From NCBI RefSeq assembly GCF_003334305.1, contig NZ_QOWS01000021.1: a DNA stretch of 64,000 bases. The stretch is one strand, 5' to 3'. The position numbers and the translations under genes were made by a program. This document shows, one piece after another, positions 32,414 to 56,324 of the stretch; the first letter of the stretch is position 1, and each line of letters opens with the position of its first letter. Under the pieces are notes generated by a model. The model did no database searches. It saw nothing but the letters and a program-made list of their open reading frames with translations, and was not told the DNA's origin. This DNA comes from Escherichia coli (GTDB lineage: Bacteria; Pseudomonadota; Gammaproteobacteria; Enterobacterales; Enterobacteriaceae).

Positions 32414-32443
32414 AATTAGCTCTGATATTGTCAGATGATTCGG

Positions 32444-33136: not shown

Positions 33137-33355
33137 AGTTAATACGCCTTGTGTATTCCTGACGGCAAAAATAAGAAATATAAAGAAATGATTGCTTTGG
33201 TTTCTTACAACACATCATTCCCTTTTCATTTAATAAAGCGGCATGATACAAAGTGAACATGATTTCGATTTACATTGCCACCATACCGCTTCAGACAACC
33301 GGCACATTACTTTGTTATAAGACGTGATATATAATTCAAAACAACGTGGTTTTGA

Positions 33356-33898
33356 TTATTCGTATCTCATAATAAAAGTCGCGTCAGCATTTGCTTGCCC
33401 TGCTGATGCACTTGTACCGGTGCCTTTATAACGTGCAGAAAAATGAAGAACGTTGGTCCCGGGGATCAAGTTCTGGTTGGTTGAGAAGCTATTCCCATCA
33501 GGTTTGAGAATTGCGGATGTATTATCAAGTATTTCAATACCGACACCCGTTGCTGTTGTTGTATTGGTACTGGATGCAATGGCCAATAAATTATCATTGA
33601 TTGCATCAGCCTGACCAGAAAATGCAACGGCAGCATTAGCGGCAACAACAGGATCGCAGTCGTTCAACTGAATGGTGAATGGAATTAATGCAGAGGTATT
33701 ACCAACAGCATTGAAAATATCGGTACGATATTGACCGAGTGTGACAACCTGGTCTGCCGAGTCAGTATTCACTGAACAGGCAGCATTCACCAGTTCGCCT
33801 TCAAAGTGAATTGTACCGCCATCTACAACGGCAGCATAACTACCCGTAGCGGCGAATAGTGCGGCAGCCAGCGCAGACGAAATAAATCTTAATTTCAT
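33356..33898 (-). CDS. sfmA: Type 1-like fimbrial major subunit SfmA
   Basis: ORF 33356..33931 trimmed to [28 protein letters not shown]...; 180 aa. Confidence 0.88.
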
Positions 33899-34378
33899 AT
33901 ATATTCCTTCAATCTCATTTATCGACTCCACATCCGTATATAACCGATTACTTTATTTAAGTCACTGATAGTAGTAAAATTCCTTTTTATCCTCTAAGAA
34001 TGTCTTAATTGAAAATATGCACTCTAATCTAAAAAATAGAGAGCCCCGTTAGATGAATACTTCCGCGCAAAATATATTCAACACAAATATAGACCTGAAG
34101 CGGTAAATCACCAGGCTGAAAATTCTTTTTATATTGTCAGGTATTTCTTAAATTATCTTAATCCTTAAACAAGGAAATAAATCAGTTCCAGATTTACAAC
34201 GCCATCATGGACGAAAAATGAAGCTTTCAATCTCAGCGACCTCAGCGACGGTGCGCCTAACCTTCGCAAGAGGTCGCTTCACGCGATAAATCTGAAACGA
34301 AACCTGACAGCGCGCCCCGCTTCTGACAAAATAGGCGCATCCCCTTCGACCTACGTAACAGATGGAATCCTCTCTCTG

Positions 34379-35245
34379 ATGGCAGCAAAGATTATTGACG
34401 GTAAAACGATTGCGCAGCAGGTGCGCTCTGAAGTTGCTCAAAAAGTTCAGGCGCGTATTGCAGCCGGACTGCGGGCACCAGGACTGGCCGTTGTGCTGGT
34501 GGGTAGTAACCCTGCATCGCAAATTTATGTCGCAAGCAAACGCAAGGCTTGTGAAGAAGTCGGGTTCGTCTCCCGCTCTTATGACCTCCCGGAAACCACC
34601 AGCGAAGCGGAGCTGTTGGAGCTTATCGATGCGCTGAATGCCGACAACACCATCGATGGCATTCTGGTTCAACTGCCGTTACCGGCGGGTATTGATAACG
34701 TCAAAGTGCTGGAACGTATTCATCCGGACAAAGACGTGGACGGTTTCCATCCTTACAACGTCGGTCGTCTGTGCCAGCGCGCGCCGCGTCTGCGTCCCTG
34801 CACCCCGCGCGGTATCGTCACGCTGCTTGAGCGTTACAACATTGATACCTTCGGCCTCAACGCCGTGGTGATTGGCGCATCGAATATCGTCGGTCGCCCA
34901 ATGAGCATGGAACTGTTGCTCGCAGGTTGCACCACTACCGTGACTCACCGCTTCACTAAAAATCTGCGTCATCACGTAGAAAATGCCGATCTGTTGATCG
35001 TTGCCGTTGGCAAGCCAGGCTTTATTCCCGGTGACTGGATCAAAGAAGGCGCAATTGTGATTGATGTCGGCATCAACCGTCTGGAAAATGGCAAAGTTGT
35101 GGGCGACGTCGTGTTTGAAGACGCGGCTAAACGCGCCTCATACATTACGCCTGTTCCCGGCGGCGTTGGCCCGATGACGGTTGCCACGCTGATTGAAAAC
35201 ACGCTACAGGCGTGCGTTGAATATCATGATCCACAGGATGAGTAA
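34379..35245 (+). CDS. folD: Bifunctional methylenetetrahydrofolate dehydrogenase/cyclohydrolase FolD
   Basis: 288 aa [51 protein letters not shown]... Confidence 0.95.
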
Positions 35246-35246
35246 C

Positions 35247-35459
35247 ATGGCGACATTTTCTTTAGGTAAACATCCGCACGTTGAGCTGTGCGACTTGCTG
35301 AAACTGGAAGGCTGGAGCGAAAGCGGCGCGCAGGCGAAAATCGCGATTGCCGAAGGCCAGGTGAAAGTCGACGGTGCGGTTGAAACGCGCAAACGCTGCA
35401 AAATCGTCGCCGGTCAGACAGTGAGTTTTGCAGGTCACAGCGTACAGGTTGTTGCCTGA
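35247..35459 (+). CDS. ybcJ: S4-domain RNA-binding protein YbcJ
   Basis: ORF 35193..35459 trimmed to MATFSLGKHPHVELCDLLKLEGWSESGAQAKIAIAEGQVKVDG...; 70 aa. Confidence 0.88.
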   Translation: MATFSLGKHPHVELCDLLKLEGWSESGAQAKIAIAEGQVKVDGAVETRKRCKIVAGQTVSFAGHSVQVVA

Positions 35460-35467
35460 TCCCTTTC

Positions 35468-35499
35468 CCGGCCTGTATCAACAGGCCGGTTCTCTTTTC
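35468..35499 (+). terminator. Rho-independent terminator after ybcJ
   Basis: ccggcctgtatcaacaggccgg hairpin followed by ttctcttttc. Confidence 0.7.
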
Positions 35500-35566
35500 A
35501 GACTTTTGCCCTCTACGCCCCGTTCATCCATGCTGATAGCATCGACATTTTGCCGAAGCGACCATC

Positions 35567-36088
35567 ATGCCAACCGTTATTACGCACGCCGCCGTTCCCC
35601 TATGCATTGGTTTAGGGTTGGGTTCGAAAGTCATCCCTCCGCGTCTGTTATTTGCCGGAATCATCCTGGCGATGCTGCCCGACGCCGACGTATTGTCGTT
35701 TAAATTTGGCGTTGCTTACGGCAATGTTTTTGGTCATCGCGGTTTTACCCATTCGCTGGTGTTTGCGTTTGTTGTCCCGCTGTTATGTGTGCTGATTGGA
35801 CGCCGATGGTTCAGGGCTGGGCTGATTTGCTGCTGGCTGTTTTTAACCGTCTCGTTGCTATCGCACAGCTTGCTGGATTCGGTAACCACTGGCGGTAAGG
35901 GCGTTGGCTGGCTGTGGCCGTGGTCAGATGAACGCTTTTTCGCTCCCTGGCAGGTGATTAAAGTCGCGCCGTTTGCATTGTCTCGTTACACCACGCCGTA
36001 CGGGCATCAGGTGATAATTTCTGAATTGATGTGGGTGTGGTTGCCGGGGATGGTGCTTATGGGAATGTTGTGGTGGCGCAGGCGATAA
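35567..36088 (+). CDS. ybcI: Inner membrane protein YbcI (metal-dependent hydrolase-like)
   Basis: 173 aa, hydrophobic; position between ybcJ and cysS as in K-12. Confidence 0.85.
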   Translation: MPTVITHAAVPLCIGLGLGSKVIPPRLLFAGIILAMLPDADVLSFKFGVAYGNVFGHRGFTHSLVFAFVVPLLCVLIGRRWFRAGLICCWLFLTVSLLSHSLLDSVTTGGKGVGWLWPWSDERFFAPWQVIKVAPFALSRYTTPYGHQVIISELMWVWLPGMVLMGMLWWRRR

Positions 36089-36123
36089 CCGGATGCGAAA
36101 ACTCGCATCCGGCAACAGCGCAA

Positions 36124-37509
36124 TTACTTACGACGCCAGGTGGTCCCTTGCGGGCCATCTTCCAGCACGATCCCCATCTCGTTAAGACGGTCACGCGCCG
36201 CATCTGCCGCCGCCCAGTCTTTCGCTTTACGGGCATCCAGACGCTGTTGAATTAACGCTTCAATCTCAGCCACTTCGCTGTCGTCTGCCTGCGCGCCGCT
36301 TTGCAGGAACGCTTCCGGTTCTTGCTCCAGCAGGCCCAATACAGCGGAAAGTTTACGCAGGTGAGATGCCATTGCATTCGCCGCTGCCATATCTTCTGCT
36401 TTCAGACGGTTTACTTCACGCGCCATATCAAACAGTACGGAATAGGCTTCCGGGGTGTTGAAATCGTCGTCCATCGCTTCAATAAAGCGCGCTTCAAACG
36501 CTTCGCCACCGGCAGGCGCAACGGTTTTATCTGTGCCGCGCAGCGCAGTGTAGAGACGCTCCAGCGCCGCACGCGCCTGCTTCAGGTTCTCTTCGCTGTA
36601 GTTCAACTGGCTGCGATAGTGGCCCGACATCAGGAAGTAACGCACGGTTTCCGCGTCGTAGTATTTCAGCACATCGCGCACGGTAAAGAAGTTACCCAGC
36701 GATTTGGACATCTTCTCGCGGTCAACCATCACCATCCCCGAGTGCATCCAGTAGTTCACATACTGGCCATCATGGGCACAGGTGGACTGCGCGATTTCGT
36801 TCTCGTGGTGCGGGAACATCAGGTCTGAACCGCCGCCGTGGATATCAAAGTGGTTACCCAGCTGCTTGCAGTTCATTGCCGAACATTCAATGTGCCAGCC
36901 TGGACGGCCCGCGCCCCACGGAGACGGCCAGCTCGGTTCGCCCTCTTTCGACATCTTCCACAGAACGAAGTCCATCGGGTTGCGTTTGTCGTCGACCACG
37001 TCAACGCGCGCACCTGCCTGCAGCTGGTCGAGATCCTGACGCGACAGCACGCCATATGTCGGATCGGTCGGGACGTCGAACATCACGTCGCCGTTGTCCG
37101 CCACATAAGCGTGACCTTTGGCGATCAGTTGTTCAGTGAGTTCAATAATTTCTGCGATATGGTGCGTCGCGCGCGGCTCCATATCCGGGCGCAGAATGTT
37201 CAAAGCATCAAAATCTTTGTGCATTTCGGCGATCATGCGATCCACCAGCGCCACAAAGCTTTCGCCATTTTCATTGGCGCGTTTGATGATTTTGTCGTCG
37301 ATATCGGTAATGTTGCGCACATACTTCAGTTTATAGCCGAGGAAACGCAGATAGCGCGCAACCACGTCAAAAGCAACAAAGGTACGCCCGTGACCGATAT
37401 GACAGAGATCGTAAACGGTGATTCCACACACATACATGCCGACTTCCCCGGCGTGAATAGGCTTAAATTCCTCTTTTTGGCGTGTCAGAGTATTGAAGAT
37501 TTTTAGCAT
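36124..37509 (-). CDS. cysS: Cysteine--tRNA ligase
   Basis: 461 aa [48 protein letters not shown]... (HIGH motif) and KMSKS. Confidence 0.96.
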
Positions 37510-37682
37510 CGAAGATTCCGTTTAGACATGTGTGGGTAATTGAGTTGCGTATAATACCCATATTTCCCGCGCGAATCAGCATACATTGCGTGATGATCCG
37601 ATCGTGCGGTTATGCTATAACACCACCCTATATATGACCCGAACTGGGTTGAAGCACCAATCAAACGGAACAGGATGCAAAA

Positions 37683-38177
37683 ATGGTTACTTTCCACACC
37701 AATCACGGCGATATTGTCATCAAAACTTTTGACGATAAAGCACCTGAAACAGTTAAAAACTTCCTGGACTACTGCCGCGAAGGTTTTTACAACAACACCA
37801 TTTTCCACCGTGTTATCAACGGCTTTATGATTCAGGGCGGCGGTTTTGAACCGGGCATGAAACAAAAAGCCACCAAAGAACCGATCAAAAACGAAGCCAA
37901 CAACGGCCTGAAAAATACCCGTGGTACGCTGGCAATGGCACGTACTCAGGCTCCGCACTCTGCAACTGCACAGTTCTTCATCAACGTGGTTGATAACGAC
38001 TTCCTGAACTTCTCTGGCGAAAGCCTGCAAGGTTGGGGCTACTGCGTGTTTGCTGAAGTGGTTGACGGCATGGACGTGGTAGACAAAATCAAAGGTGTTG
38101 CAACCGGTCGTAGCGGTATGCACCAGGACGTGCCAAAAGAAGACGTTATCATTGAAAGCGTGACCGTTAGCGAGTAA
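37683..38177 (+). CDS. ppiB: Peptidyl-prolyl cis-trans isomerase B (cyclophilin)
   Basis: 164 aa [54 protein letters not shown]... Confidence 0.95.
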
Positions 38178-38179
38178 TC

Positions 38180-38902
38180 GTGGCGACACTCTTTATTGCA
38201 GATCTTCATCTCTGCGTGGAAGAACCGGCGATCACCGCCGGTTTTCTGCGTTTTTTAGCGGGGGAAGCCCGCAAGGCCGACGCGCTGTATATTCTTGGCG
38301 ATCTGTTTGAAGCATGGATTGGCGACGACGATCCCAACCCACTCCATCGCCAGATGGCGGCAGCGATCAAAGCGGTGTCCGATTCCGGCGTTCCCTGTTA
38401 TTTCATTCATGGCAACCGTGATTTTCTGCTCGGCAAACGCTTTGCCCGTGAAAGCGGCATGACATTATTGCCGGAAGAAAAGGTGCTCGAACTTTATGGT
38501 CGCCGGGTGTTGATTATGCATGGCGACACGCTGTGCACCGATGACGCGGGTTATCAGGCTTTTCGCGCCAAAGTCCACAAACCCTGGCTGCAAATGCTAT
38601 TCCTCGCCCTGCCGTTGTTTGTGCGCAAACGCATTGCCGCGCGAATGCGAGCGAACAGTAAAGAAGCCAACAGCAGTAAATCGCTGGCGATCATGGACGT
38701 TAACCAAAACGCGGTAGTCAGTGCGATGGAAAAACATCAGGTGCAATGGCTGATCCACGGACATACCCATCGCCCGGCGGTACATGAACTTATCGCCAAC
38801 CAGCAACCTGCTTTTCGCGTGGTACTCGGTGCCTGGCATACGGAAGGTTCGATGGTGAAAGTCACGGCGGATGACGTTGAGCTGATTCATTTTCCGTTTT
38901 AA
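38180..38902 (+). CDS. lpxH: UDP-2,3-diacylglucosamine hydrolase LpxH
   Basis: 240 aa [50 protein letters not shown]... Confidence 0.95.
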
Positions 38903-38932
38903 AAAACCCACAACTTTGCTGATTTCACAGCC

Positions 38933-38948
38933 ACGCAACCGTTTTCCT
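38933..38948 (+). promoter_or_regulatory. Candidate PurR operator (PUR box) upstream of purE
   Basis: acgcaaccgttttcct resembles the PUR box consensus ACGCAAACGTTTTCNT with one mismatch. Confidence 0.5.
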
Positions 38949-39019
38949 TGCTCTCTTTCCGTGCTATTCTCTGTGCCCTCTAAAGCCGAGAGTTGTGCAC
39001 CACAGGAGTTTTAAGACGC

Positions 39020-39529
39020 ATGTCTTCCCGCAATAATCCGGCGCGTGTCGCCATCGTGATGGGGTCCAAAAGCGACTGGGCTACCATGCAGTTCGCCGCC
39101 GAAATCTTCGAAATCCTGAATGTCCCGCACCACGTTGAAGTGGTTTCTGCTCACCGCACCCCCGATAAACTGTTCAGCTTCGCCGAAAGCGCCGAAGAGA
39201 ACGGTTATCAGGTGATTATTGCGGGCGCAGGTGGCGCAGCGCACCTGCCAGGCATGATTGCCGCCAAAACGCTGGTGCCGGTGCTGGGCGTGCCAGTACA
39301 GAGCGCCGCACTGAGCGGTGTCGATAGCCTCTACTCCATCGTACAAATGCCGCGCGGCATTCCGGTGGGTACGCTGGCGATTGGTAAAGCTGGCGCGGCA
39401 AACGCGGCATTACTGGCAGCACAAATTCTCGCGACTCACGATAAAGAGCTACACCAGCGTCTGAATGACTGGCGCAAAGCCCAGACCGACGAAGTGCTGG
39501 AAAACCCGGACCCGCGAGGTGCGGCATGA
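39020..39529 (+). CDS. purE: N5-carboxyaminoimidazole ribonucleotide mutase PurE
   Basis: ORF 38993..39529 trimmed to ATG 39020 with [59 protein letters not shown]... Confidence 0.95.
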
Positions 39530-40593
39530 AACAGGTTTGCGTCCTCGGTAACGGGCAGTTAGGCCGTATGCTGCGTCAGGCAGGCGAACCGTTAGGCATT
39601 GCTGTCTGGCCGGTCGGGCTGGACGCTGAACCGGCGGCGGTGCCTTTTCAACAAAGCGTGATTACCGCTGAGATCGAACGCTGGCCGGAAACCGCATTAA
39701 CCCGCGAGCTGGCGCGTCATCCGGCCTTTGTGAACCGCGATGTGTTCCCGATTATTGCCGACCGTCTGACTCAGAAGCAGCTTTTCGATAAGCTCCACCT
39801 GCCGACCGCACCGTGGCAGTTACTTGCCGATCGCAGCGAGTGGCCTGCGGTGTTTGAGCGTTTAGGTGAACTGGCGATTGTTAAGCGTCGCACTGGTGGC
39901 TATGACGGTCGCGGTCAATGGCGTTTACGTGCCAATGAAACCGAACAGTTACCGGCAGAGTGTTACGGCGAATGTATTGTCGAGCAGGGCATTAACTTCT
40001 CTGGTGAAGTGTCGCTGGTTGGCGCACGCGGATTTGATGGCAGCACCGTGTTTTATCCGCTGACGCATAACCTGCATCAGGACGGTATTTTGCGCACCAG
40101 CGTCGCTTTTCCGCAGGCCAATGCGCAGCAGCAAGCGCAAGCCGAAGAGATGCTGTCGGCGATTATGCAGGAGCTGGGCTATGTGGGCGTGATGGCGATG
40201 GAGTGTTTTGTCACCCCGCAAGGTCTGCTGATCAACGAACTGGCACCGCGTGTGCATAACAGCGGTCACTGGACACAAAACGGTGCCAGCATCAGCCAGT
40301 TTGAGCTGCATCTGCGGGCGATTACCGATCTGCCGTTACCGCAACCGGTAGTGAATAGTCCGTCGGTGATGATCAACCTGATTGGTAGCGATGTGAATTA
40401 TGACTGGCTGAAACTGCCGCTGGTGCATCTGCACTGGTACGACAAAGAAGTCCGTCCGGGGCGTAAAGTGGGGCATCTGAATTTGACCGACAGCGACACA
40501 TCGCGTCTGACTGCGACGCTGGAAGCCTTAATCCCGCTGCTGCCGCCGGAATATGCCAGCGGCGTGATTTGGGCGCAGAGTAAGTTCGGTTAA
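39526..40593 (+). CDS. purK: N5-carboxyaminoimidazole ribonucleotide synthase PurK
   Basis: 355 aa [36 protein letters not shown]...; ATP-grasp; overlaps purE stop. Confidence 0.95.
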
Positions 40594-40609
40594 CTGGTGC
40601 TCTATTCTT

Positions 40610-40768
<159 letters not shown>

Positions 40769-40787
40769 AAATGTCTAATGCCTACGA

Positions 40788-41681
40788 CTACAGCGAAATA
40801 CAGGTCCCCGCTTCGCCCGCCAGCGTCTCTTCAATTCGCGATAACGCCCCAATCCACGCGGGTTTACCACGGCTTCTGACATAACCACTTACCGCCGTTA
40901 CCTTCGGCCCCATCGAACCATCGGCTTTGGCAAATGGCGCTAACTCATCCGGTGTGGCATGGCGAATGGCGCGTTGCTGCGGCGTTCCCCAGTTTTCATA
41001 TACCGCATCAGCATCGGTGAGGATCACCAGCCCATCGGCGTTAATCTGCTCGGCAAGCAAGGCAGCGGCGAGATCTTTATCAATCACCGCTTCACTCCCT
41101 GCCCCATCTTCCGTCACAGGCACACCGCCGCCGCCACTGCAAATCACCACATGCCCCTCTTTGAGCAACAACTCGATGGCTTCGCTGTCGAGAATTTTAC
41201 GCGGTTGCGGAGACGCCACCACCCGGCGCAAATATTTACCATCACGTTTCATCTGCCAGCCGTAAGCCGCTTCCAGTGCCTTTTGTTCTTCTGGCTGATA
41301 AACCGGACCAATAAATTTCTCTGGCTGCAAAAACGCCGGATCATCAGGCGAAACCTCAATGCGCGTCAGCACCGTCGTGACAGGCGGCATCTGCGGCTGT
41401 GCGCTCAAACTCTGCGCCAGCATATAGCCAATCATCCCCTGGCTTTCCGCCACCAGCACATCCAGCGGATACGGATCTACCTCTTTCCACGCCAGATTCT
41501 GCAATGCCAGCAGCCCCACCTGCGGCCCATTGCCGTGAACAATCGCCAGCCGATAAGAACGGGCCAGGCGCGCCAGCGCGGGTACAGCACTGGCGATATT
41601 GCGATATTGATTTTCTGCCGTCAGCGCCTCACCGCGCTGGAGTAAGGCGTTGCCCCCAAGAGCTACAACCAGTGTTTTCAT
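40788..41681 (-). CDS. ybcF: Carbamate kinase-like protein YbcF
   Basis: 297 aa [56 protein letters not shown]... Confidence 0.9.
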
Positions 41682-42493
41682 GGTGTTCCTTGTAATAATT
41701 GTTGACCAAGCCAGAACCCCAGCAGCGTATCTGCCCCTGACGTGTGCCCCAGCGCCAGCAGCGAATCAATCGCAACAGCGGTACGTTTCGGGCAACTCAG
41801 AGCATGAACAAAGTGCAGGAGTGGCGAGGCGAAATATCCTTGCGCGGCATAACGTAAATAACTGACGCTCACCGCTGTGGTAACGAGTTGCAGATTGTCG
41901 GAACAGGCAAAAAACTGGCGACCGGAGCGCGCATCTAAAGCGCCATAATACCAGGCCGCCAGCAGCATTCCGCTCAGCGTGTCATCATGACTCGGCGTTA
42001 ATCCGGGGCCTTTACCCAGCCAGTGCCGCCAGTCGGTCTTAACGCCATTGAGCGCGGCCTGAAAACAGTGACGAAACTGGCGTAACTCAGCAGGCAGCGG
42101 ATCGCTTGCCGCCAACGCCAGTGGCCCGAAAAGCCCGGTTTCCTCCGCGCGTTGCATCCATGCAGCTGCAAGTGGTTGAGGATGCGCAGGCGGCGTAATA
42201 CGCAGCAAACAATAACGCTGTGGCTGTTTAACCGTGAAACGCCCGAGGCGAATCCCTTGAGCCACAACCTGTGGTCGTTCATTGCCGCATAATCCACCGC
42301 ATAACGCATCGAATTGCGCACGGCGAAGCATCCATCCTCCGGGGCCGAAACCACTACCCTGACGATGCAGCGTTAACAGTTCGCCGCTTTCCGTCATCAG
42401 GTTAATCGCCCGTCGCCACACTCCCGCTAACCGCCAGGACTGGCGATAATTCGGTGCACTACGGCTGGCAAGCAGAGGATGGATGATCGTCAT
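41678..42493 (-). CDS. ylbF: DUF2877 protein YlbF
   Basis: ORF 41678..42586 trimmed to [20 protein letters not shown]...; 271 aa; position between ybcF and ylbE. Confidence 0.75.
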
Positions 42494-42503
42494 TGCGCGT
42501 TCC

Positions 42504-43763
42504 TCAACCAATCCCCATGCTTTCAGCCAGTGCTTCCAGCGCCTGTTCAAAACACGCCAGCGGTGCCCGCACAGTGCCTGCGCCAATCTGCCCGATCCCC
42601 GCCTCTTTATGGGCGATACCGGTATTGATGAGTGGCGTAATGCCGGTTTCTACCACGCGACGAATGTCCAGTCCCAGGCACGCGCCCTGAAAATCCCAGC
42701 CTGGGATCTGCAACTGCATATTGCGCTCAAGGTAAATTTCCGCCATCTCTTCAGATACCGCTCTGGCCGCTTCCATGCCACCCGCACCGACAAAGCGCGT
42801 TACGCCAGGCGCTGCGATCATTGCCGCACCTCCGATACCAAAGGTTTCGGTAATCGCGCTATCGCCCATATCCGGGTTCGCCTGCTCCTGCGAGAAGCCG
42901 GTGAAAAACAGACCTTGCGGAGTGTTTACAGGCGCAGTAAACCAGCGTTCGCCCAGCCCGCTTACCCGAATCCCGAACATATTGCCGTTGCGGGTCATTG
43001 CCGTGACGATGCTGCCTGCGCGGATCATCGCGCCAGCATCCATCGCCGCCTTGCAGTAAGCCATCGCGAGGTTGAGGAAGAACTGATCGGTCACGCTGAG
43101 GAAATCCATCACTTCGGCGATGTGCTGTTTATCATGATCGAGGCGAGCAATTTGTGGGGCCAGCGCACGCATTAACAGTGCAGAGGAAGCAATATTGCGT
43201 TGATGGAACTCATCGCCCATCGTAATGCCCTGCGCCATCATCGCCGTGAGATCGATACCGCGCTCCATGCGCCCCAGCGCCGCGCTTAATACTGGCATTA
43301 ACACATCGCGCATCCAGCGATGGCGAGTCAGGACATCTTCGCCGTAAGCGCCAAAACGCATCACTTTGCCGATACCTTCGTTGAGGTTGCAGTACGCCCG
43401 GTTGCCGTCGGTCACGTTCTCGACCACCAGCATCGGCATACTGGCAGAAGTAATGCCGCCCATTGGCCCGACGGCATTCACATGGTGACAAGGAATGAAG
43501 TTCACTTCCCCCTGCTCCAGCATTGCCAGTGCCTGCGCTTCATCTTTCGCCCAGCCTTCAAACAGACATGCACCCACACATGCCCCTTTCATTGGCCCGG
43601 TCATCTCCTGCCAGCGCATTGGCGGCCCGGCGTGAAGCAGTGTTTTGCCCTGGTTTAGTTCGCTGATAAGTGAAGAAGCCGGTTGCACATCCAGCCAGTG
43701 TGGACGAGCGCGACGAATTTGTTCGATAACCGCAGCATTGGCTTGCGCCACTGATGTAAACAT
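42504..43763 (-). CDS. ylbE: DUF1116 protein YlbE (apparently intact, 419 aa)
   Basis: 419 aa [48 protein letters not shown]...; position between ylbF and fdrA. Confidence 0.8.
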
Positions 43764-43772
43764 GGGAACCCC

Positions 43773-45440
43773 TTATTGCAAACGTTCTAATAAACGAGCC
43801 AGTTTTTTATTGCCGCCGGCGACTGGCGACCATTGGTAATGCACAACCGGTTTGCTGGCGCTTTGTAGCTCCAGCGCAAAGCTGCGTAATCCGATGTTAA
43901 TCACGGCGACGTTTTCCAGTAATGACGGTGTGTGTTGCTGTGTGGCAGACGAGAGCGGATGAATTAACGCTGCCGCCAGCAAGGTGGCTTCCGGCAGCGA
44001 ACTCACTACCGCGATCCCCGCATCTTCCAGCGTGGCGATTTGCTGCGAGCGGCATTGCGGGTCACGTTCGGTACCTGTCACCGTGGCAATGGCGTACAGT
44101 GGTTGGCTGTCTGAACGCGCGGCACAGGCTTTTTGCCAGGCGCTCACCAGCGAGGCAGCAGGATCGGCGGTCGCACCGAAGCCAATCACGACATCAAGCA
44201 GCAATACGCGCACTTGCGGTTTAGCGCCGAGATCGGCAATTAACTGGTTGCGTAAGGCTGGGTCGATCATCGGATGGGGACGCCCGACGGTGTAGAAATC
44301 ATCGCCCAGATCAATGATCTGGTGACCATCGGCGTCCAGCATCATGCCGTGATGATGGGTATCGTCGGCTTCCACGCCAAGGTGCCCGGCAAGTAATCCC
44401 GCCGCTTCGGCAGCAAGCGTACCGCCGGTATACAAACCGCAAATAAATCCGCTGCTGACAGGCGCTATTGCGTTACGTCGCGCCGTGACGCGTGAAAGCA
44501 GGCAAGCCAGGCGTGCGGCCTCATCCAGCGAGGAGGCAAACCAGACATTCTCGTCGCGGGCCACCGCCGGGGTATAACCTAAAAACAGCGCCACCGTCGG
44601 TTTGCCGGTTGCTTTCATGGCATTAACAATTTTCAGACGCACAGCTTCGGCAGGCGGTTTTGAAACAAATGCCAGCACTTCGCTTTTCTCGTCTGCACTG
44701 AGCATTTCCAGCGCCGTCAGCGCACTGATGCCGCCCACTTCACGGCTGAGGTCGCGCCCGCCAAGGCCAATCGCGTGAGTAATTCCCTCCCCTGCCAGCG
44801 CAATCTGTGAGCACAGCTCCTGAATCCCGGTACCGGAAGCGCCAATGACGCCAATGTTGCCTTCCGGCATCACGTTAGCAAAAGCCAGCGGCGTGGCGGC
44901 AATCATCGACGTACCGCAGTCCGGCCCCATCACCAGCAAGCCTTTTTCTCGCGCGCGGGTTTTAAGTTGGATTTCATCTTCCAGCGTGACGTTATCGGAG
45001 AACATCATCACGTTGAGGTTGCGATCCAGCGCCTGATTCGCCAGCTCCGCCGCATACTCGCCAGCCACTGAAATCAGCGCCAGATTGGCATCGGATAATT
45101 TCTGACAGGCACTGTCCCAGCGACGCACCTGCGTCAAGGACTGGCTGCTGCCTGACCCCTGCGCCAGTTGTTTTAGCGCCTCTTCAAGCTGCTGCATAAT
45201 CGCCTGCGCGATCCCCGCATCCGCCGCTTCGCTACGTATTGCCACGCAAATATCGTTCGGCGTGGCGTTATTAAAATCGTCATGCCAGAAACCTGTGGTA
45301 TCTAATAACGCTTTATTGGCGGGCGTACCCATCATTACGGAAACATCATCAACATTTTCTGATTCGCTGAGTTTTCGTGAAATAATCATTAAACTGACCG
45401 AATCCTGAAAACACCCTTTTTTAATAAAGGCGTGGATCAT
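43773..45440 (-). CDS. fdrA: FdrA (CoA-binding/succinyl-CoA synthetase-like)
   Basis: 555 aa MIHAFIKKGCFQDSVSLMIISRKLSESENVDDVSVMMGTPANKALL... Confidence 0.9.
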   Translation of the reverse strand: MIHAFIKKGCFQDSVSLMIISRKLSESENVDDVSVMMGTPANKALLDTTGFWHDDFNNATPNDICVAIRSEAADAGIAQAIMQQLEEALKQLAQGSGSSQSLTQVRRWDSACQKLSDANLALISVAGEYAAELANQALDRNLNVMMFSDNVTLEDEIQLKTRAREKGLLVMGPDCGTSMIAATPLAFANVMPEGNIGVIGASGTGIQELCSQIALAGEGITHAIGLGGRDLSREVGGISALTALEMLSADEKSEVLAFVSKPPAEAVRLKIVNAMKATGKPTVALFLGYTPAVARDENVWFASSLDEAARLACLLSRVTARRNAIAPVSSGFICGLYTGGTLAAEAAGLLAGHLGVEADDTHHHGMMLDADGHQIIDLGDDFYTVGRPHPMIDPALRNQLIADLGAKPQVRVLLLDVVIGFGATADPAASLVSAWQKACAARSDSQPLYAIATVTGTERDPQCRSQQIATLEDAGIAVVSSLPEATLLAAALIHPLSSATQQHTPSLLENVAVINIGLRSFALELQSASKPVVHYQWSPVAGGNKKLARLLERLQ

Positions 45441-45756
45441 AACAACTCCTTAAAAATTGCACCCATGGCAATTGCACGAGCAGTGTTAATGTGGCGATTA
45501 CGGTATCGATGACAACGGGTAAATAAGGTGATGAATATCACACAGGGATTATTAACAAAAGAATTCAAATAACCGCCAGGCTATTACGCATTATTTTTTA
45601 ATAAGCGTGGTTGTTTTAAAAATCAGGTTAAAAGTGAGCGGATTATCAAATAAATTCTAACTATATTTTTTTGCCTGTCTGGATCACATAATCCAGATAT
45701 TTTCCCTGTATGTTAATTGCAGTCATGCTTCACACCGTCGTTAAAAAGGAAGACAG

Positions 45757-46806
45757 ATGAAAATCAGTCGGGAAACACTCCACCAGCTAATCGAGAATAA
45801 ACTCTGCCAGGCTGGGTTAAAACGTGAGCACGCTGCAACCGTGGCTGAAGTATTGGTTTACGCCGATGCCAGAGGGATCCACTCTCATGGCGCGGTGCGC
45901 GTGGAATACTACGCGGAACGCATTTCAAAAGGCGGCACCAACCGCGAACCGGAGTTTCGTCTTGAGGAAACCGGGCCGTGCTCGGCAATTTTACATGCCG
46001 ACAATGCCGCCGGACAGGTCGCGGCGAAAATGGGTATGGAACATGCCATCAAAACCGCCGAGCAAAATGGCGTTGCGGTGGTCGGAATCAGCCGGATGGG
46101 TCACAGCGGCGCAATCTCTTATTTTGTGCAGCAGGCAGCCCGCGCCGGATTAATTGGCATTTCGATGTGCCAGTCCGATCCAATGGTGGTGCCGTTTGGC
46201 GGCGCGGAAATTTACTACGGTACTAACCCACTGGCCTTTGCCGCGCCGGGAGAAGGCGACGAGATCCTTACCTTTGATATGGCGACTACCGTACAGGCAT
46301 GGGGAAAAGTGCTCGACGCCCGCTCGCGTAATATGTCTATCCCGGATACCTGGGCGGTCGATAAAAACGGAGCACCAACAACCGATCCGCTCGCGGTACA
46401 TGCTCTGCTCCCCGCCGCCGGGCCGAAAGGGTATGGCCTGATGATGATGATTGACGTCCTCTCAGGCGTCTTACTCGGCTTACCGTTCGGGCGACAGGTT
46501 AGTTCGATGTATGACGATTTACACGCCGGGCGTAATTTGGGGCAATTACATATAGTTATTAATCCGAACTTTTTCTCCTCCAGCGAATTATTCCGTCAAC
46601 ATCTTAGCCAGACCATGCGCGAATTAAATGCCATTACCCCCGCGCCCGGTTTTAATCAGGTTTATTATCCCGGACAGGATCAGGATATTAAACAACGCAA
46701 AGCCGCCGTCGAAGGCATCGAAATTGTTGATGATATTTACCAGTATTTAATTTCCGACGCGCTTTATAACACGTCATACGAAACGAAAAATCCCTTTGCG
46801 CAATAA
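45757..46806 (+). CDS. allD: Ureidoglycolate dehydrogenase AllD
   Basis: 349 aa MKISRETLHQLIENKLCQAGLKREHAATVAEVLVYADARGIHSHGAVRVEYY... Confidence 0.93.
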   Translation: MKISRETLHQLIENKLCQAGLKREHAATVAEVLVYADARGIHSHGAVRVEYYAERISKGGTNREPEFRLEETGPCSAILHADNAAGQVAAKMGMEHAIKTAEQNGVAVVGISRMGHSGAISYFVQQAARAGLIGISMCQSDPMVVPFGGAEIYYGTNPLAFAAPGEGDEILTFDMATTVQAWGKVLDARSRNMSIPDTWAVDKNGAPTTDPLAVHALLPAAGPKGYGLMMMIDVLSGVLLGLPFGRQVSSMYDDLHAGRNLGQLHIVINPNFFSSSELFRQHLSQTMRELNAITPAPGFNQVYYPGQDQDIKQRKAAVEGIEIVDDIYQYLISDALYNTSYETKNPFAQ

Positions 46807-46827
46807 TTATTGAGACAGGACTTTCTT

Positions 46828-48063
46828 ATGATTACACATTTCCGTCAAGCCATAGAAGAAACGCTACCCTGGCTTTCCTCTTTTGGCGCTGACCCAACGG
46901 GTGGGATGACCCGTTTACTTTATTCGCCGGAATGGCTGGAAACCCAGCAGCAATTTAAAAAAAGAATGGCAGCAAGTGGGCTGGAAACACGTTTCGATGA
47001 AGTAGGGAATTTATACGGTCGCCTGAATGGTACCGAATATCCACAGGAAGTGATTCTGAGCGGTTCGCATATCGATACCGTGGTTAACGGCGGTAACCTC
47101 GACGGGCAATTCGGCGCGCTGGCGGCGTGGCTGGCAATTGACTGGCTGAAAACGCAATACGGCGCGCCGCTACGTACGGTCGAAGTGGTGGCGATGGCAG
47201 AAGAAGAAGGCAGCCGCTTCCCGTATGTCTTCTGGGGCAGTAAAAATATCTTTGGGCTGGCGAATCCTGACGACGTGCGGAATATCTGTGATGCCAAAGG
47301 AAATAGTTTTGTCGATGCGATGAAGGCTTGCGGATTTACTCTTCCGAACGCCCCACTAACTCCGCGTCAGGATATTAAAGCCTTTGTTGAACTGCATATT
47401 GAACAGGGCTGTGTGCTGGAAAGTAATGGGCAATCAATTGGCGTGGTGAATGCAATTGTCGGGCAGCGTCGTTATACGGTAACGCTGAACGGCGAATCAA
47501 ACCATGCAGGCACCACGCCGATGGGTTATCGTCGTGATACAGTTTACGCTTTCAGTCGCATTTGCCATCAGTCGGTCGAAAAAGCGAAAAGGATGGGCGA
47601 TCCGCTGGTTCTGACCTTTGGCAAAGTAGAGCCGCGCCCGAATACGGTAAATGTGGTGCCGGGTAAAACCACGTTCACCATTGATTGTCGTCATACCGAC
47701 GCTGCCGTGCTGCGCGATTTCACCCAACAGTTAGAAAACGACATGCGGGCGATTTGCGATGAAATGGACATTGGTATTGATATCGATTTATGGATGGACG
47801 AAGAACCCGTGCCGATGAATAAGGAGCTGGTCGCCACCCTGACAGAATTGTGTGAAAGTGAAAAACTGAATTACCGGGTGATGCACAGTGGTGCCGGGCA
47901 CGACGCGCAAATTTTCGCGCCTCGCGTACCAACCTGCATGATTTTCATTCCCAGCATCAACGGGATCAGCCATAACCCGGCGGAACGCACCAATATTACC
48001 GACCTTGCCGAAGGGGTCAAAACGTTGGCACTCATGCTTTATCAACTTGCCTGGCAGAAATAA
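46828..48063 (+). CDS. allC: Allantoate amidohydrolase AllC (M20 peptidase family)
   Basis: ORF 46810..48063 trimmed to MITHFRQAIEETLPWLSSFGADPTGGMTRLLYSPEW...; 411 aa. Confidence 0.93.
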   Translation: MITHFRQAIEETLPWLSSFGADPTGGMTRLLYSPEWLETQQQFKKRMAASGLETRFDEVGNLYGRLNGTEYPQEVILSGSHIDTVVNGGNLDGQFGALAAWLAIDWLKTQYGAPLRTVEVVAMAEEEGSRFPYVFWGSKNIFGLANPDDVRNICDAKGNSFVDAMKACGFTLPNAPLTPRQDIKAFVELHIEQGCVLESNGQSIGVVNAIVGQRRYTVTLNGESNHAGTTPMGYRRDTVYAFSRICHQSVEKAKRMGDPLVLTFGKVEPRPNTVNVVPGKTTFTIDCRHTDAAVLRDFTQQLENDMRAICDEMDIGIDIDLWMDEEPVPMNKELVATLTELCESEKLNYRVMHSGAGHDAQIFAPRVPTCMIFIPSINGISHNPAERTNITDLAEGVKTLALMLYQLAWQK

Positions 48064-48073
48064 GGAGTCATAA

Positions 48074-48859
48074 ATGGGATATTTAAATAACGTCACCGGT
48101 TACCGCGATGATTTACTGGCTAACCGTGCGATTGTTAAACACGGTAATTTCGCACTGTTAACCCCGGATGGTCTGGTAAAAAATATTATTCCGGGCTTTG
48201 AAAATTGTGACGCGACAATCCTCTCCACGCCAAAGCTGGGTGCCTCTTTTGTTGATTATCTGGTCACACTGCATCAAAACGGTGGCAACCAACAGGGCTT
48301 CGGTGGCGAAGGCATTGAAACGTTCCTGTATGTGATCTCTGGAAATATCACTGCCAAAGCCGAAGGCAAAACATTTGCCTTAAGCGAAGGTGGCTATCTT
48401 TATTGCCCACGAGGCTCCTTAATGACGTTTGTTAACGCCCAGGCCGAAGACAGCCAAATCTTTTTATATAAGCGCCGCTATGTTCCGGTAGAAGGCCATG
48501 CACCGTGGCTGGTTTCTGGCAATGCCAGCGAACTGGAACGCATTCACTATGAAGGTATGGATGATGTGATCCTGCTGGATTTTCTGCCCAAAGAGTTAGG
48601 TTTTGATATGAACATGCATATCCTCTCTTTTGCACCAGGTGCCAGCCACGGTTATATCGAAACACATGTTCAGGAACACGGTGCCTATATTCTTTCCGGT
48701 CAGGGGGTTTATAACCTCGACAATAACTGGATCCCGGTGAAAAAAGGCGATTACATCTTTATGGGCGCTTATTCTTTACAGGCTGGTTATGGCGTAGGGC
48801 GTGGTGAAGCGTTCAGCTATATTTACTCGAAAGATTGTAACCGCGACGTCGAGATTTAA
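48074..48859 (+). CDS. allE: (S)-ureidoglycine aminohydrolase AllE (cupin)
   Basis: 261 aa MGYLNNVTGYRDDLLANRAIVKHGNFALLTPDGLVKNIIPGFENCD... Confidence 0.92.
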   Translation: MGYLNNVTGYRDDLLANRAIVKHGNFALLTPDGLVKNIIPGFENCDATILSTPKLGASFVDYLVTLHQNGGNQQGFGGEGIETFLYVISGNITAKAEGKTFALSEGGYLYCPRGSLMTFVNAQAEDSQIFLYKRRYVPVEGHAPWLVSGNASELERIHYEGMDDVILLDFLPKELGFDMNMHILSFAPGASHGYIETHVQEHGAYILSGQGVYNLDNNWIPVKKGDYIFMGAYSLQAGYGVGRGEAFSYIYSKDCNRDVEI

Positions 48860-48901
48860 GTCATACCACTCGCCTGATTATTTTTAGCTATGTTGGATTT
48901 T

Positions 48902-48929
48902 GCCACGGTTTATACCGTGGCTTTTTTTG
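48902..48929 (+). terminator. Rho-independent terminator after allE
   Basis: gccacggtttataccgtggc hairpin followed by tttttttg. Confidence 0.75.
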
Positions 48930-48943
48930 TAGTAAATTCAGGT

Positions 48944-48970
48944 AAAAAAAGATGCGATATAAATCGCATC
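48944..48970 (-). terminator. Rho-independent terminator after glxK (minus strand)
   Basis: gatgcgatataaatcgcatc hairpin preceded on the forward strand by aaaaaaa (U-run on minus strand). Confidence 0.7.
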
Positions 48971-48987
48971 CGCTTTAAAGGTAAGGG

Positions 48988-50133
48988 TCAGTTTTTAATT
49001 CCCTGACCTATTTTAATGGCGCAGGCAATATTTCGTGCGCTGTTGAAGAGATTGGTTTCACCGCTGGCGAGCACTTCGGCTAAAGGTGCCAGACGTGGCA
49101 AAATGCTGAATACCGCATCAATGCCGTACTGGTGCACCACTTCCACGCCATCACCCAATACGCCAGCAATCCCAATCACCGGGACATTAAACTGCTTCGC
49201 CACCGACGCCACACCCAGCGGCGCTTTACCGCCTGCCGTTTGCGAGTCGATGCGCCCTTCCCCGGTAATCACCAGTGCTGCGCCCTGCACTGCCTGCGCA
49301 AGATTGACCGCATTCAACACAATCTCAATACCTGGTTTAATATCCGCATTGAGAAATACCGCCGCCGCAATACCCATACCGCCCGCAGCGCCGCCGCCCG
49401 CCATCTGGCAGACGTTGATTTCAGTTTGCTGTTGTAAAACACGGGCGTAATTTTGCAGCCCCTGTTCCAGCTCTTCGACCATCTCCGGCGTTGCCCCTTT
49501 TTGCGGGCCAAATACCGCCGCCGCGCCGCGTGCCCCTACCAGCGGGTTATCAACGTCACATGCCACTTCAATATGGCTTTTCGCCAGACGCGGATCGCAT
49601 TCCTCTATCTCAATGCTTGCCACGCGCGCTAAATTGCCGCCGTTAGCCGCCAGCACCTGGCCGTCGGCATCAAGGAAACGCACACCAAGCGCCTGCGCCA
49701 TGCCCATACCGCCGTCGACCGTCGCACTGCCGCCAATGCCGAGAATAATATGGCGAATGCCGTTATCCAGCGCATGACGAATTAACTCCCCCGTACCAAA
49801 ACTGGAGGCCAGCAACGGATTACGCTTTTCAGGCGCGACCAGCATCAGGCCACTTGCTGCCGCCATCTCAATCACCGCCGTTTTCCCGTCGCCGGTAAGG
49901 CCATAAAAAGCATTCACTTTTTCGCCCATCGGCCCGCAGACTTCAAGCGTCACGATGTTGCCGCCCGTCGCGGCGACCATCGCATCCACCGTTCCTTCGC
50001 CGCCATCCGCTATCGGCAAACAGATATAGTTCGCATCGGGAAAGAGGGTCGAAAACCCGGCTTTAATTGCCTGACAACATTTTTCTGCACTTAAGCTCTC
50101 TTTAAAAGAGTCTGGCGCAATGACAATCTTCAT
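48988..50133 (-). CDS. glxK: Glycerate 3-kinase GlxK
   Basis: ORF 48988..50139 trimmed to [48 protein letters not shown]...; 381 aa. Confidence 0.93.
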
Positions 50134-50154
50134 TATCAATCCTTTTTCAACAAA

Positions 50155-51462
50155 TTATTCGATACGTTCCCACGGAATAAGGTTATCCATAAGAACAGCC
50201 AGTAAAATCCCGACCAATAAGCCGTTACTGAGCAGAGGACGAAGCGTTAATGGAAGGTCTTGCAGATACACAGGCGGTAATGCCATTAAAAATATGCCGA
50301 CAAATAACGGCAATGCGAGTCGATAAATATTGCGAGCGGTAAAGGTTATTTGCTGGCTAAACACCAGCGCGGAAAAGAGTAAAGGCAGATAAGAAACCAG
50401 CATGACCGCGCTACTCACGGGTAAAGGGATACTGCAAAACAGTCGTGTGAGTGCCGGAACCAGCGCCACCAGCAGGCAAATAACGCTGCCATAAATAAAC
50501 GAACGCCGCGTGTAATCGCCTGTCTGGGTTAATAAACCAATGGATGAAACAAACGGTGAAAATGGAATTACCGCCAGCGGTACGGTTATCAGCGTCATAA
50601 ATCCGGTCGCCACAAAGCTGCGACGATAACGCGTATTTCCCGCGCCCTGCTGCGGATAAAAAACATCCGTGCCCCGAATCGCACCGTAGGTATTGCTGAT
50701 ATTCACCAGACCTGTAATCACCGCCGTCAGAATAATTCCCGGAGACAAAGCACCTCCACTGCCGAGCGGGAACCACTGCCAGTGCAACTCACCGGAGAGC
50801 GAGTGCGAAGAAGGAAAGCAAAAGTACCACAACAACCAGCCGGTTATGGTGCCGACCAGCAGGCCATAACGGGCAAAACGTTGCGGCAGGAAGATAATCA
50901 TCCCCAGTACCAGGCACATCACCGCCACCGAGAGCGCGAACGGCGGTAACTGAATTTTAAAATTTGGGTCGGCTATGCCAAACGGCAGCCCGAGCATACC
51001 TTTGAAAAAGATAGTGGTCAGCTGCGCGCCCAGCATCAACATAAACAAGACCATCACCGACGGCGTAAATAACCGCGCCAGGCGATGGCCTAATCCGCTA
51101 AAACCAATCAACACCGTCAGCACGCCGGAGAGTGCAATCCCCACTGCCAGGCTGGTGGCGATATCGTTGATCGGTGTCCCGCGCGATGCTTCGCCAAGGG
51201 TGATAGTAAGGATGGTTCCCCACCACAGGCCACCTGGCCCTTCCATAATAGCGCGACGATGACCGCAGAACGCCTGAGCGAAGCAGGCCAGTGCGGTAGC
51301 AAGAAAAGCATATTGCGTGAGTGTAAGCAGGCTACTTTGCGGCAACTGAAAAGCAGAAAGTAGCGTAGGAGGAACCACAACCGTGTTGCAAAAAATAAAG
51401 AAAAACCACTGAAATCCTGATAACAGGCTTTCGCGGCTCACTGCAAAATTGAACATAAACAC
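50155..51462 (-). CDS. ybbY: Putative purine/uracil permease YbbY (NCS2 family)
   Basis: 435 aa polytopic membrane protein; position between glxK and allB. Confidence 0.88.
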   Translation of the reverse strand: MFMFNFAVSRESLLSGFQWFFFIFCNTVVVPPTLLSAFQLPQSSLLTLTQYAFLATALACFAQAFCGHRRAIMEGPGGLWWGTILTITLGEASRGTPINDIATSLAVGIALSGVLTVLIGFSGLGHRLARLFTPSVMVLFMLMLGAQLTTIFFKGMLGLPFGIADPNFKIQLPPFALSVAVMCLVLGMIIFLPQRFARYGLLVGTITGWLLWYFCFPSSHSLSGELHWQWFPLGSGGALSPGIILTAVITGLVNISNTYGAIRGTDVFYPQQGAGNTRYRRSFVATGFMTLITVPLAVIPFSPFVSSIGLLTQTGDYTRRSFIYGSVICLLVALVPALTRLFCSIPLPVSSAVMLVSYLPLLFSALVFSQQITFTARNIYRLALPLFVGIFLMALPPVYLQDLPLTLRPLLSNGLLVGILLAVLMDNLIPWERIE

Positions 51463-51512
51463 ACCTTAACCGGAGAATGCCCGCCGCAAGGACGGGCATT
51501 GCAGGGGCCAGA

Positions 51513-52874
51513 TTACTGCTGATGTTTAAGGATAAATTGACCTTTCGGCGCAACAGGGAAGCCCTGTTCAATGTCGTAAATCACATCACCACGTAAGATG
51601 GTTTTCGTGATACGCGCGCCAATGGTACGGCCAACATACGGGCTGACTTTGTGGCGATATTCCAGATCGTCATTGGTAAGAACATAGCTGCTATTCGGCT
51701 GAATGAAGACGAAGTCGGCATCTTTTCCTGGGGCGATACGGCCTTTTTGCTGCAGACCGAAAATATCTGCTGCGTTAGTCGCCATTAATTTGCCGAACAT
51801 TGGCAGAGACATTCCGCGTTTCTGTACCGCTTCATCGAACATCACGTCCATACAGTTTTGCAGACCGGCAATACCGCCCCATGCTTCCATGATGTTGCCG
51901 GCTTTCATTTCCGGAGGGCATGGTGAGTGGTCGGAAACCAGGCAGTCGATTTCACCGTTAAACAGTTTTTCCCACATGCCTTTCTGGTTTTCCAGATCGC
52001 GGATCGGCGGTGAACACTTCGCCAGAGTGCCGATTTCTTCGAACTGATCGGTATCCAGTACAAAGTAATGCGGGCAGGATTCACAAGTAACGTCCTGACC
52101 TTCCTGACGTGCACGAGTCACTTCTTCAACGCCTTCCGGGCTGCTGATATGGCAAACGTGCAGACGGCAACCGGCAACTTTCGCCAGATACAGCACGCGG
52201 CGAATCGCTTCCACTTCGGTAAATACCGGACGCGAAGCCACATAGTCATGGGCAGTTACGCGACCTTCACGTTTCGCTTCTTCGCCCAGTGCGTCACAGA
52301 TCAGCGCGTTTTCGCAGTGCACCAACACCGGCTGCCCCAGTTCGCCCAGCTTCTGCGCACCTTTGAAGAACTGCCAGTCGTTTACATCACGGAAGTCGTT
52401 GTCGATACCGCGATCGCCACAGGTCGCAACGAAGCATTTGAAGCCGACAACGCCCACTTCATCCAGCTCATGCAGACGGTCGATGTTGTAAGACACCAGG
52501 CCACCGAGTTGTGCCGCATCGATAGTCAGCTTGCCTTTAGCGGCATCGAACTTCAGTTCAATTGAAGCGCGGTCAACCGTTGCAGGCAGCTGGTTGAGCG
52601 GCATTTCGATCATGGTGGTGATACCACCTTTTGCCGCTGCGCGAGTACCGGTTTCATAACCTTCCCAGTGGCTACGACCCGGTTCAGAAATATGGGTGTG
52701 CGCATCAACCATGCCCGGCGAAACCACCAGACCAGACGCATCCATAACTTCTTTTGCATCGCCCAGATCCTGACCGATAGCAGCAATTTTCCCGCCTTTA
52801 ACGGCGATATCTACAACGCGAGCTTCGTTTTCTAAAATAACGGTGCCGTTTTTAATGATTAAATCAAAAGACAT
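51513..52874 (-). CDS. allB: Allantoinase AllB
   Basis: 453 aa [66 protein letters not shown]... Confidence 0.95.
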
Positions 52875-52933
52875 AACAAACTCCTTGTAAAATACAGATT
52901 GGTTTTTAACTCAATGTTCAATATCGGGATTAA

Positions 52934-54388
52934 TTAACCTATGGTTTTTTGCTCTCCTGTTTTTTCTGCTGTTGTACGTTTCTTTAATAAGGCGTAGGCC
53001 GCAAAGGCGACGATGACGCCGACAAACCATGAAACACGCGATAACGGTTCCATAAAGGGAATAAACTTACCGCCAAGAGATAAAATAACGGCCACCAGAG
53101 TTACTGAAAACGCGGTGAGGTTAAAACCGTTATCGTAATATTTATAATCGCCAGGTGCGGTGTACAGTTCATCAAGATTAATTTGCCCACGCATCACCAC
53201 AAAATAATGTGCCATCATGACACCAATTACCGGACCCAGCATTCCGCCGATGATATCGAGGAACAGATAAATACTGTCCTGATTTTCCATTAATTTCCAC
53301 GGGCAGATCAGCAGGCTGATAATACTGGCAATCAGTACGCCGTTTTTATAGGTCAGTTTTGTCGGTGCAATGGCAGCAATCTGATAACCGGCCGGAATAA
53401 TATTACCGGTGGCGTTAGTGGAAATAGTCGTCATCAGAATAACCAGTACCGCAAAGAACGAGGCAAACAGGCTGTCCCAACGCTGAACAATATCCAGCAC
53501 GTTCCAGGTGTCAGCGCCGTAGTGAATACTGGCTCCGGCAATAATACATACCCCAGCGACCGCAAACAGAATATAGGCCACAACTAAACCCAGCGTTTGC
53601 CCCAGCGCTTGCTCACGAAACGAGTGGGCGTTTTGCGTAAAGTCGGATGCGCTCACCGCCGGTGCCGCCCAGACCGCAACTACCGCGTTAATCACCACCA
53701 GGAACAAGAATCCACTGTTTTCTGCTTTCTGAATACCGCTCGGAATGTAGTCAAAGATTGGACCGATCCCGACCAGTGAAATCGCCCAAATCGCCATGCC
53801 GCCGAAAACGATATAGATGCACGGGTTAAGAATGGCAGTGAATTTATTTAAAACTTTGCCACCGCCAAAACCAATACCAACGTTAACCAGCCAGAAGAGT
53901 AAGAAAGTAATTAAGCCCGGTAGCGAAAGGCCTAACAAGGTAAAATCACCACCGAGAGTTAAAAATCCCGGCCAGATTTTGCCAATCAGGATCAAGCAGG
54001 CCAGTGATCCGGCGTAACATTGCAGGCCAAACCACATAATGGCAGCAATACCACCTCTTAATAATCCGGGAAACAGTGCGCCACGTACGCCGTAAGAAGC
54101 ACGCAGGATCATGGCAAACGGTACGCCGTATTTACTGCCCGCAGCACCGTTTAATACCATTACCGCGGCAATGAAAAAGGCGCTGAGGATAATTGCCAGC
54201 ATAATACTAAAGGTAGACAAGCCGAGAATAAAAAAGCCGCCGACCATCACATAATTGGGAACGTTATGAACCGAACCCATCCATAAGGTAAAATAGTTAA
54301 ATGTTTTCCAGGTCCGCTGGCTTTGCGTTTTCGGCAATAAATCTTCGCTATAGCCGCGTTGCTGGAATAGCTTTCTCTGATGTTCCAT
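52934..54388 (-). CDS. ybbW: Allantoin permease YbbW/AllW (NCS1 family)
   Basis: 484 aa polytopic membrane protein MEHQRKLFQQRGYSEDLLPKTQSQRTWKTFNYFTLWMG... Confidence 0.92.
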   Translation of the reverse strand: MEHQRKLFQQRGYSEDLLPKTQSQRTWKTFNYFTLWMGSVHNVPNYVMVGGFFILGLSTFSIMLAIILSAFFIAAVMVLNGAAGSKYGVPFAMILRASYGVRGALFPGLLRGGIAAIMWFGLQCYAGSLACLILIGKIWPGFLTLGGDFTLLGLSLPGLITFLLFWLVNVGIGFGGGKVLNKFTAILNPCIYIVFGGMAIWAISLVGIGPIFDYIPSGIQKAENSGFLFLVVINAVVAVWAAPAVSASDFTQNAHSFREQALGQTLGLVVAYILFAVAGVCIIAGASIHYGADTWNVLDIVQRWDSLFASFFAVLVILMTTISTNATGNIIPAGYQIAAIAPTKLTYKNGVLIASIISLLICPWKLMENQDSIYLFLDIIGGMLGPVIGVMMAHYFVVMRGQINLDELYTAPGDYKYYDNGFNLTAFSVTLVAVILSLGGKFIPFMEPLSRVSWFVGVIVAFAAYALLKKRTTAEKTGEQKTIG

Positions 54389-54557
54389 AAATCCCTCTTA
54401 ATTTCACGTATCGAATAACGTTGTTTTAATCTAGCTATGAGGAACAAATAAAATAAAAAATATTATTTTTAATACTGAAGCAACATCTTTGGCTGCTTTC
54501 TTTTTTAATATTGCTGGCCGATTCATTTTCTGATATCGGCCATTTTTATTGCGGGTA

Positions 54558-56312: not shown

Positions 56313-56324
56313 TATTTATCTCCC

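Follow-up and report, generated by a model that had tools for sequence, protein, structure and literature searches.

The ylbE gene (also known as allG) in the stretch of Escherichia coli DNA analysed here, a 64,000-nucleotide piece of contig NZ_QOWS01000021.1 that we call the window, is almost certainly an ordinary, functional allele in its normal state, and the frameshift that has been attributed to the same gene in K-12 MG1655 just as surely goes back to a base undercounted in the pre-2013 reference sequence. Across E. coli the frame of ylbE is normally open, and genuine MG1655 is no exception, nor is its current reference. The gene is an already characterised one, and the window adds nothing new to it.

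The ylbE gene in the window and in the current MG1655 reference

In the window, ylbE is a single ORF with an ATG start, 419 codons plus a stop, and no internal stops (Table 1). A preliminary description of this DNA had reported one uninterrupted 419-codon frame, and the ORF list and the raw sequence show that its coordinates and length were exact; it gave no strand, which is minus. The same description had called ylbE a DUF1116 gene, in agreement with a Pfam search in which PF06545 matched the product over the whole model (positions 1-215 of 215, residues 87-302; E = 1.1e-97, 326 bits). That family, formerly named DUF1116, is now called 'AllG, oxamate carbamoyltransferase subunit'. A search of NCBIfam returned no model matching YlbE or YlbF.

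We compared the gene base by base with its counterpart in the current MG1655 record, NC_000913.3, in which ylbE (b4572, YP_009029994.1) is an intact 1260-bp CDS at 548357..549616. The two copies are equally long (1260 vs 1260 nt) and differ by 19 substitutions and 0 indels, which amounts to 98.5% identity. With 16 of the substitutions synonymous, the proteins remain identical at 416 of 419 residues (99.3%), the differences being Q38E, M81I and G355S, written from the window to MG1655. The dN/dS ratio between the two copies is 0.056, and a value of this size over 419 codons marks ylbE as a gene under purifying selection and rules out a chance ORF.

These results bear directly on the statement, put forward in the preliminary description, that ylbE is frameshifted in the MG1655 reference. 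For the current record the statement is false. The description had also named the outcome that would speak against its reading, namely an MG1655 gene that was both identical and intact; when the alignment was made, the gene proved to be intact, but it was not identical, given the 19 substitutions. Because the reference copy is intact, the open frame fails to separate the window from the real MG1655.

Looking beyond MG1655, a megablast search with the whole gene found ylbE in 5,421 of 5,426 complete E. coli genomes, with identity of at least 95% throughout. Among the matches listed, at least 40 RefSeq genomes carry a gene that is nucleotide-identical (100%) to that of the window and annotated as ylbE.

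Table 1 Features of the window discussed in the text, in order of position
Feature	Position	Strand	Description
Lambdoid prophage at argU	1..27288		
Rz	10984..11457	-	intact
Rz1	11043..11225	-	60 aa, intact
ImmA/IrrE-family metallopeptidase and DUF4411 genes	~20474..22122	+	overlapping genes beside the prophage XRE repressor (A7 annotation)
argU	27304..27380	-	
sfmH/fimH-like adhesin gene	~28784..29791	-	1008 bp in the A7 annotation
ybcF = allK	40788..41681	-	297 aa; catabolic carbamate kinase; NCBIfam NF006926, 620 bits
ylbF = allH	41678..42493	-	271 aa; third subunit; Pfam PF11392 'AllH', E = 2.1e-29; full length vs MG1655
ylbE = allG	42504..43763	-	second gene of the operon; PF06545
G5 homopolymer in ylbE	43508..43512	-	gene nt 252-256; CCCCC on the plus strand; site of the legacy K-12 frameshift
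ylbE codon 38	43650..43652	-	CAG (Gln) here; GAG (Glu) in NC_000913.3; GAA in the old reference and W3110
fdrA = allF	43773..45440	-	555 aa; heads the allFGHK operon; NCBIfam NF004760 FdrA, 1044 bits
allD-allF intergenic region	45441..45756	.	between divergent genes; putative allF operon promoter
allD-allC-allE	45757..48859	+	divergent; full length and without indels against MG1655; A7 annotation
ylbG (truncated), small hypothetical genes, RHS element core protein gene (frameshifted or partial)	~62006..64000		A7 annotation

Source of the reported MG1655 frameshift

A frameshifted ylbE does exist in the databases. In the W3110 record (NC_007779.1) the gene is 1259 bp long (547581..548839) and flagged 'frameshifted'. 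Compared with ylbE of NC_000913.3, the W3110 sequence shows only two differences: A in place of G at nt 114, and four G in place of five at nt 252-256. The former is silent, as it affects the third base of codon 38, and removal of one G from the run closes the frame at codon 87. Once the offset of 776 bases between the coordinates of the old and the new MG1655 version is allowed for, the two W3110 differences coincide exactly with positions published for NC_000913.2. We infer the ylbE sequence of NC_000913.2/U00096.2 from this W3110 record together with the secondary literature.

In that literature, ylbE changes relative to NC_000913.2 appear in four papers and are worded differently in each. 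One lists 547,694 A->G and 547,831 +G, treats ylbE as a 'pseudogene' in which both changes together give an ORF, and counts them among the mutations found after 1000 generations (PMC5460176). Another reports a silent change at position 114 and an insertion at base 253 as variants in common MG1655 stocks (PMC4404585). A third includes ylbE in its reference genotype and calls the intact form the 'ylbE+ allele', which ATCC47076 has too (PMC4759930), and in the fourth the ylbE frameshift of NCM3722 is described as restoring an intact ancestral gene (PMC3045373). The frameshift named in the preliminary description has a real origin, and this is the pre-2013 MG1655 reference, since corrected. The legacy 'pseudogene' allele and the window copy are the same gene at the same locus; the former has A at nt 114, four G and a frame that ends early, at codon 87, whereas the window has G at nt 114, five G and an open frame.

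We considered whether MG1655 might truly carry a frameshifted ylbE pseudogene, so that the intact gene would mark the window strain as different. This is how ylbE is treated in the old reference and in earlier papers (PMC5460176, PMC4759930), and the W3110 record is frameshifted to this day. Yet the NC_000913.3 gene is intact, the extra G is present in a resequenced MG1655 (CP032667), and MG1655 depends on allG for oxamate and yields a 419-aa AllG from its DNA (PMC11326118), which together make a genuine MG1655 pseudogene highly improbable.

Census of the G-run length

We then counted how often each length of the run occurs in the same 5,426 complete E. coli genomes, at this one ylbE site. The probes were 31-33-mers centred on the run, for which a 28-nt megablast word seeds only when the run length matches; they replaced an 80-mer probe that had returned 5 records at ≥99%, four of them listed at 100%. 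Since an exact match of the flanks is needed, about 480 genomes with SNPs near the run fall outside the census. Five G, the control, was found in 4,942 of the 5,426 genomes and six G in none, and four G occurred in just four: W3110, CIT, LIM and CAR.

The CIT record is 4,639,673 bp long and has ylbE at 547581..548839, which are the W3110 ylbE coordinates as well as the position that we place in the old reference. Judging from these coordinates, examined in CIT, the data suggest that CIT, LIM and CAR are reference-guided assemblies that inherited NC_000913.2 errors. CAR, LIM and CIT (NZ_CP026026.1-NZ_CP026028.1) all match the 4-G probe at about 547,824.

The extra G is present in independently sequenced K-12 strains, namely the resequenced MG1655 mentioned above, C600 and ER1709. 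In NEB 5-alpha (NZ_CP017100.1) ylbE is likewise intact, at 1260 bp, although the announcement of that genome states that ylbE 'contains a frameshift' (PMC5105096); as the record itself is intact, the published frameshift is evidently one relative to the old reference.

The frameshift is most simply read as an error of the early reference, later corrected, in which the homopolymer was counted one base short. An early sequence would have lost one base of the G5 run and gained one silent difference, producing an apparent MG1655 frameshift, and the 4-G sequence would persist solely in the W3110 record and the three K-12-type assemblies.

Alternatively, the 4-G allele could be a true, rare stock lesion in the first-sequenced K-12 isolates (the 1997 MG1655 clone and W3110), with no sequencing error involved. 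The 'ylbE+ allele' wording, extended to ATCC47076 (PMC4759930), and the restored ancestral gene of NCM3722 (PMC3045373) would fit a lesion. So would the fact that the form is common to two nominally separate records, old MG1655 and W3110. The W3110 record was, however, largely finished against the MG1655 sequence, and the MG1655 reference has itself been revised to an intact gene. Moreover, the only census genomes with four G are W3110 and three K-12-type assemblies with old-reference coordinates, and a homopolymer site accompanied by a silent base difference is the typical pattern of an early Sanger miscall. We regard a stock lesion as unlikely; whether error or lesion, the verdict on ylbE in the window is the same. 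A further idea, that the G5 tract is slippage-prone and occasionally switches off the oxamate branch in subpopulations, with the 4-G K-12 sequence as a captured variant, strikes us as extremely improbable.

Function and operon context of AllG

The function of the gene is documented in MG1655 itself. Deletion of any one of allF, allG and allH abolishes oxamate formation (Kim & Kim 2024, PMC11326118), and the wild-type oxamate level is regained only with allF, allG and allH together, the allFG pair giving 7% and the allGH pair 16% (PMC11326118). The purified AllF, AllG and AllH proteins, from genes amplified off MG1655 DNA, interconvert oxamate plus carbamoyl phosphate and oxalurate plus Pi (PMC11326118). 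The same work used MG1655 genomic DNA to express a 419-aa AllG, and oxamate production from allantoin in MG1655 was allG-dependent (PMC11326118). In the next step, AllK turns carbamoyl phosphate into ATP and NH3 (PMC9843812). AllG is one of three subunits of the oxamic transcarbamylase AllFGH (oxalurate + Pi <-> carbamoyl phosphate + oxamate), from which carbamoyl phosphate passes to AllK, in the oxamate branch of anaerobic allantoin use.

In the window, the gene order allF-allG-allH-allK beside allDCE identifies ylbE as allG by operon context. FdrA/AllF contains the Pfam domains CoA_binding and Ligase_CoA, which resemble succinyl-CoA synthetase alpha, and is full length without indels relative to MG1655. 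Spacing in the operon is tight, with gaps of 9 nt between allF and allG and of 10 nt between allG and allH, and an overlap of 4 nt between allH and allK. The divergent allD, allC and allE genes encode ureidoglycolate dehydrogenase, allantoate amidohydrolase and ureidoglycine aminohydrolase, respectively, whose steps supply AllFGH with oxalurate. In K-12, AllS and ArcA bind the allD-allF region and activate the operon (PMC12535856); by analogy, the corresponding region of the window may hold an allF promoter bound by AllS and ArcA.

All eight genes of the all cluster are full length, and the other genes of the operon have dN/dS values of 0.07-0.19 against MG1655. From the 99.3% protein identity, the purifying selection and the intact operon we infer that the window allele is as active as MG1655 AllG. 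One could object that the frame may be open and the gene nevertheless silent or non-functional here, if its promoter has decayed or substitutions have inactivated it, and the protein does differ at three residues from the characterised K-12 one. This is very unlikely in view of the low dN/dS of allG and its operon partners, the full length of every cluster gene, the preserved short gaps and overlaps between operon genes, and the occurrence of the 100% identical allele in many unrelated isolates among the matches listed.

Strain background and the prophage at argU

The preliminary description had concluded from the open ylbE frame that the background is not MG1655, and had found this consistent with different prophage content at argU. 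The conclusion holds, on the strength of sequence divergence, near-identity to another strain and the prophage; its premise of a ylbE frameshift does not. Positions 32110..57022 of the window align to the NC_000913.3 backbone at 98.6% and 97.9% identity, i.e., about 1.4-2.1% divergence. Neither regional near-identity to NC_000913.3 nor a DLP12 remnant at argU, by which an MG1655 background would be recognised, was found. The backbone alignment to MG1655 also has a few gap openings.

The window instead matches A7, an E. coli strain isolated from the faeces of an orangutan (NZ_CP028767.1), at 100% identity over positions 15001..64000, and positions 1..15000 differ from A7 by two single-base homopolymer indels and in no other way. 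These are eight C in the window vs nine in A7 at ~10542, in the gap between iss/bor and ylcI, and six G vs seven at ~11099, inside Rz/Rz1. In the window neither Rz nor Rz1 is disrupted, and both are colinear with K-12 RzpD/RzoD; the RefSeq annotation of A7 flags its Rz/Rz1 as frameshifted or incomplete. The discrepancy in the Rz homopolymer probably arose when one of the two records was sequenced or polished, as an artefact.

Two further loci can be described from the A7 annotation. The sfmH/fimH-like adhesin gene is 1008 bp long there, vs 984 bp for sfmH in MG1655. At the far end of the window, a truncated ylbG and small hypothetical genes are accompanied by a frameshifted or partial gene for an RHS element core protein, which runs off the window.

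The element at argU is a lambdoid prophage whose integrase is identical to K-12 IntD at 386 of 387 residues. Its genes include exo-bet-gam, a repressor/cro immunity region, O/P replication genes and a ybcN-ninE-ybcO-rusA-quuD segment, along with an uninterrupted nmpC-like porin gene, lysis genes, iss/bor, terminase, and head and tail genes. Next to the XRE repressor of the prophage, a gene for an ImmA/IrrE-family metallopeptidase is followed by an overlapping DUF4411 gene, and the pair may form an accessory or defence-type module. In A7 the argU prophage spans about 43 kb and reaches near ompT.

The different prophage content that the preliminary description had seen at argU is therefore borne out, the element being far more complete than the 21-kb DLP12 remnant of K-12. 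DLP12 lacks the complete recombination, replication and structural modules annotated in the window, in a comparison that draws on annotation tables and on one protein comparison, that of the integrase. The argU prophage is best described as a relative of DLP12 that is full length.

Implications

An intact ylbE is unfit as a marker against a K-12 background, and the status of its frame reflects the version of the reference used and not the background of a strain. The same holds for published 'ylbE mutations' called against the old MG1655 reference (e.g., PMC5460176), which are reference errors and not evolved changes. Furthermore, the role of AllG has been known since 2024, and the label 'DUF1116, unknown function' is out of date.

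Comparison with known systems

The closest comparison is with MG1655 YlbE/AllG, which agrees with the window copy in its length of 419 aa, in the operon allF-allG-allH-allK, in its neighbours allDCE and purK, and in its PF06545 family; 19 nt and three residues differ, with no indels. Among solved structures, a single homologue was found by sequence, PDB 3CLQ, a structural genomics entry from another organism that is titled 'uncharacterized protein' and has no assigned function. Residues 2-414 of YlbE align to positions 7-418 of its chain (E = 1.9e-111).

By the type of reaction, a carbamoyl transfer with carbamoyl phosphate, AllFGH resembles the classical transcarbamylases, i.e., ATCase (PyrB), OTCase (ArgI/ArgF) and YgeW (PMC11326118). 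In contrast to these, it needs three gene products, and its authors report no sequence similarity to the classical enzymes (PMC11326118). AllF also departs from them in its architecture, with CoA-binding and ligase domains like those of succinyl-CoA synthetase alpha.
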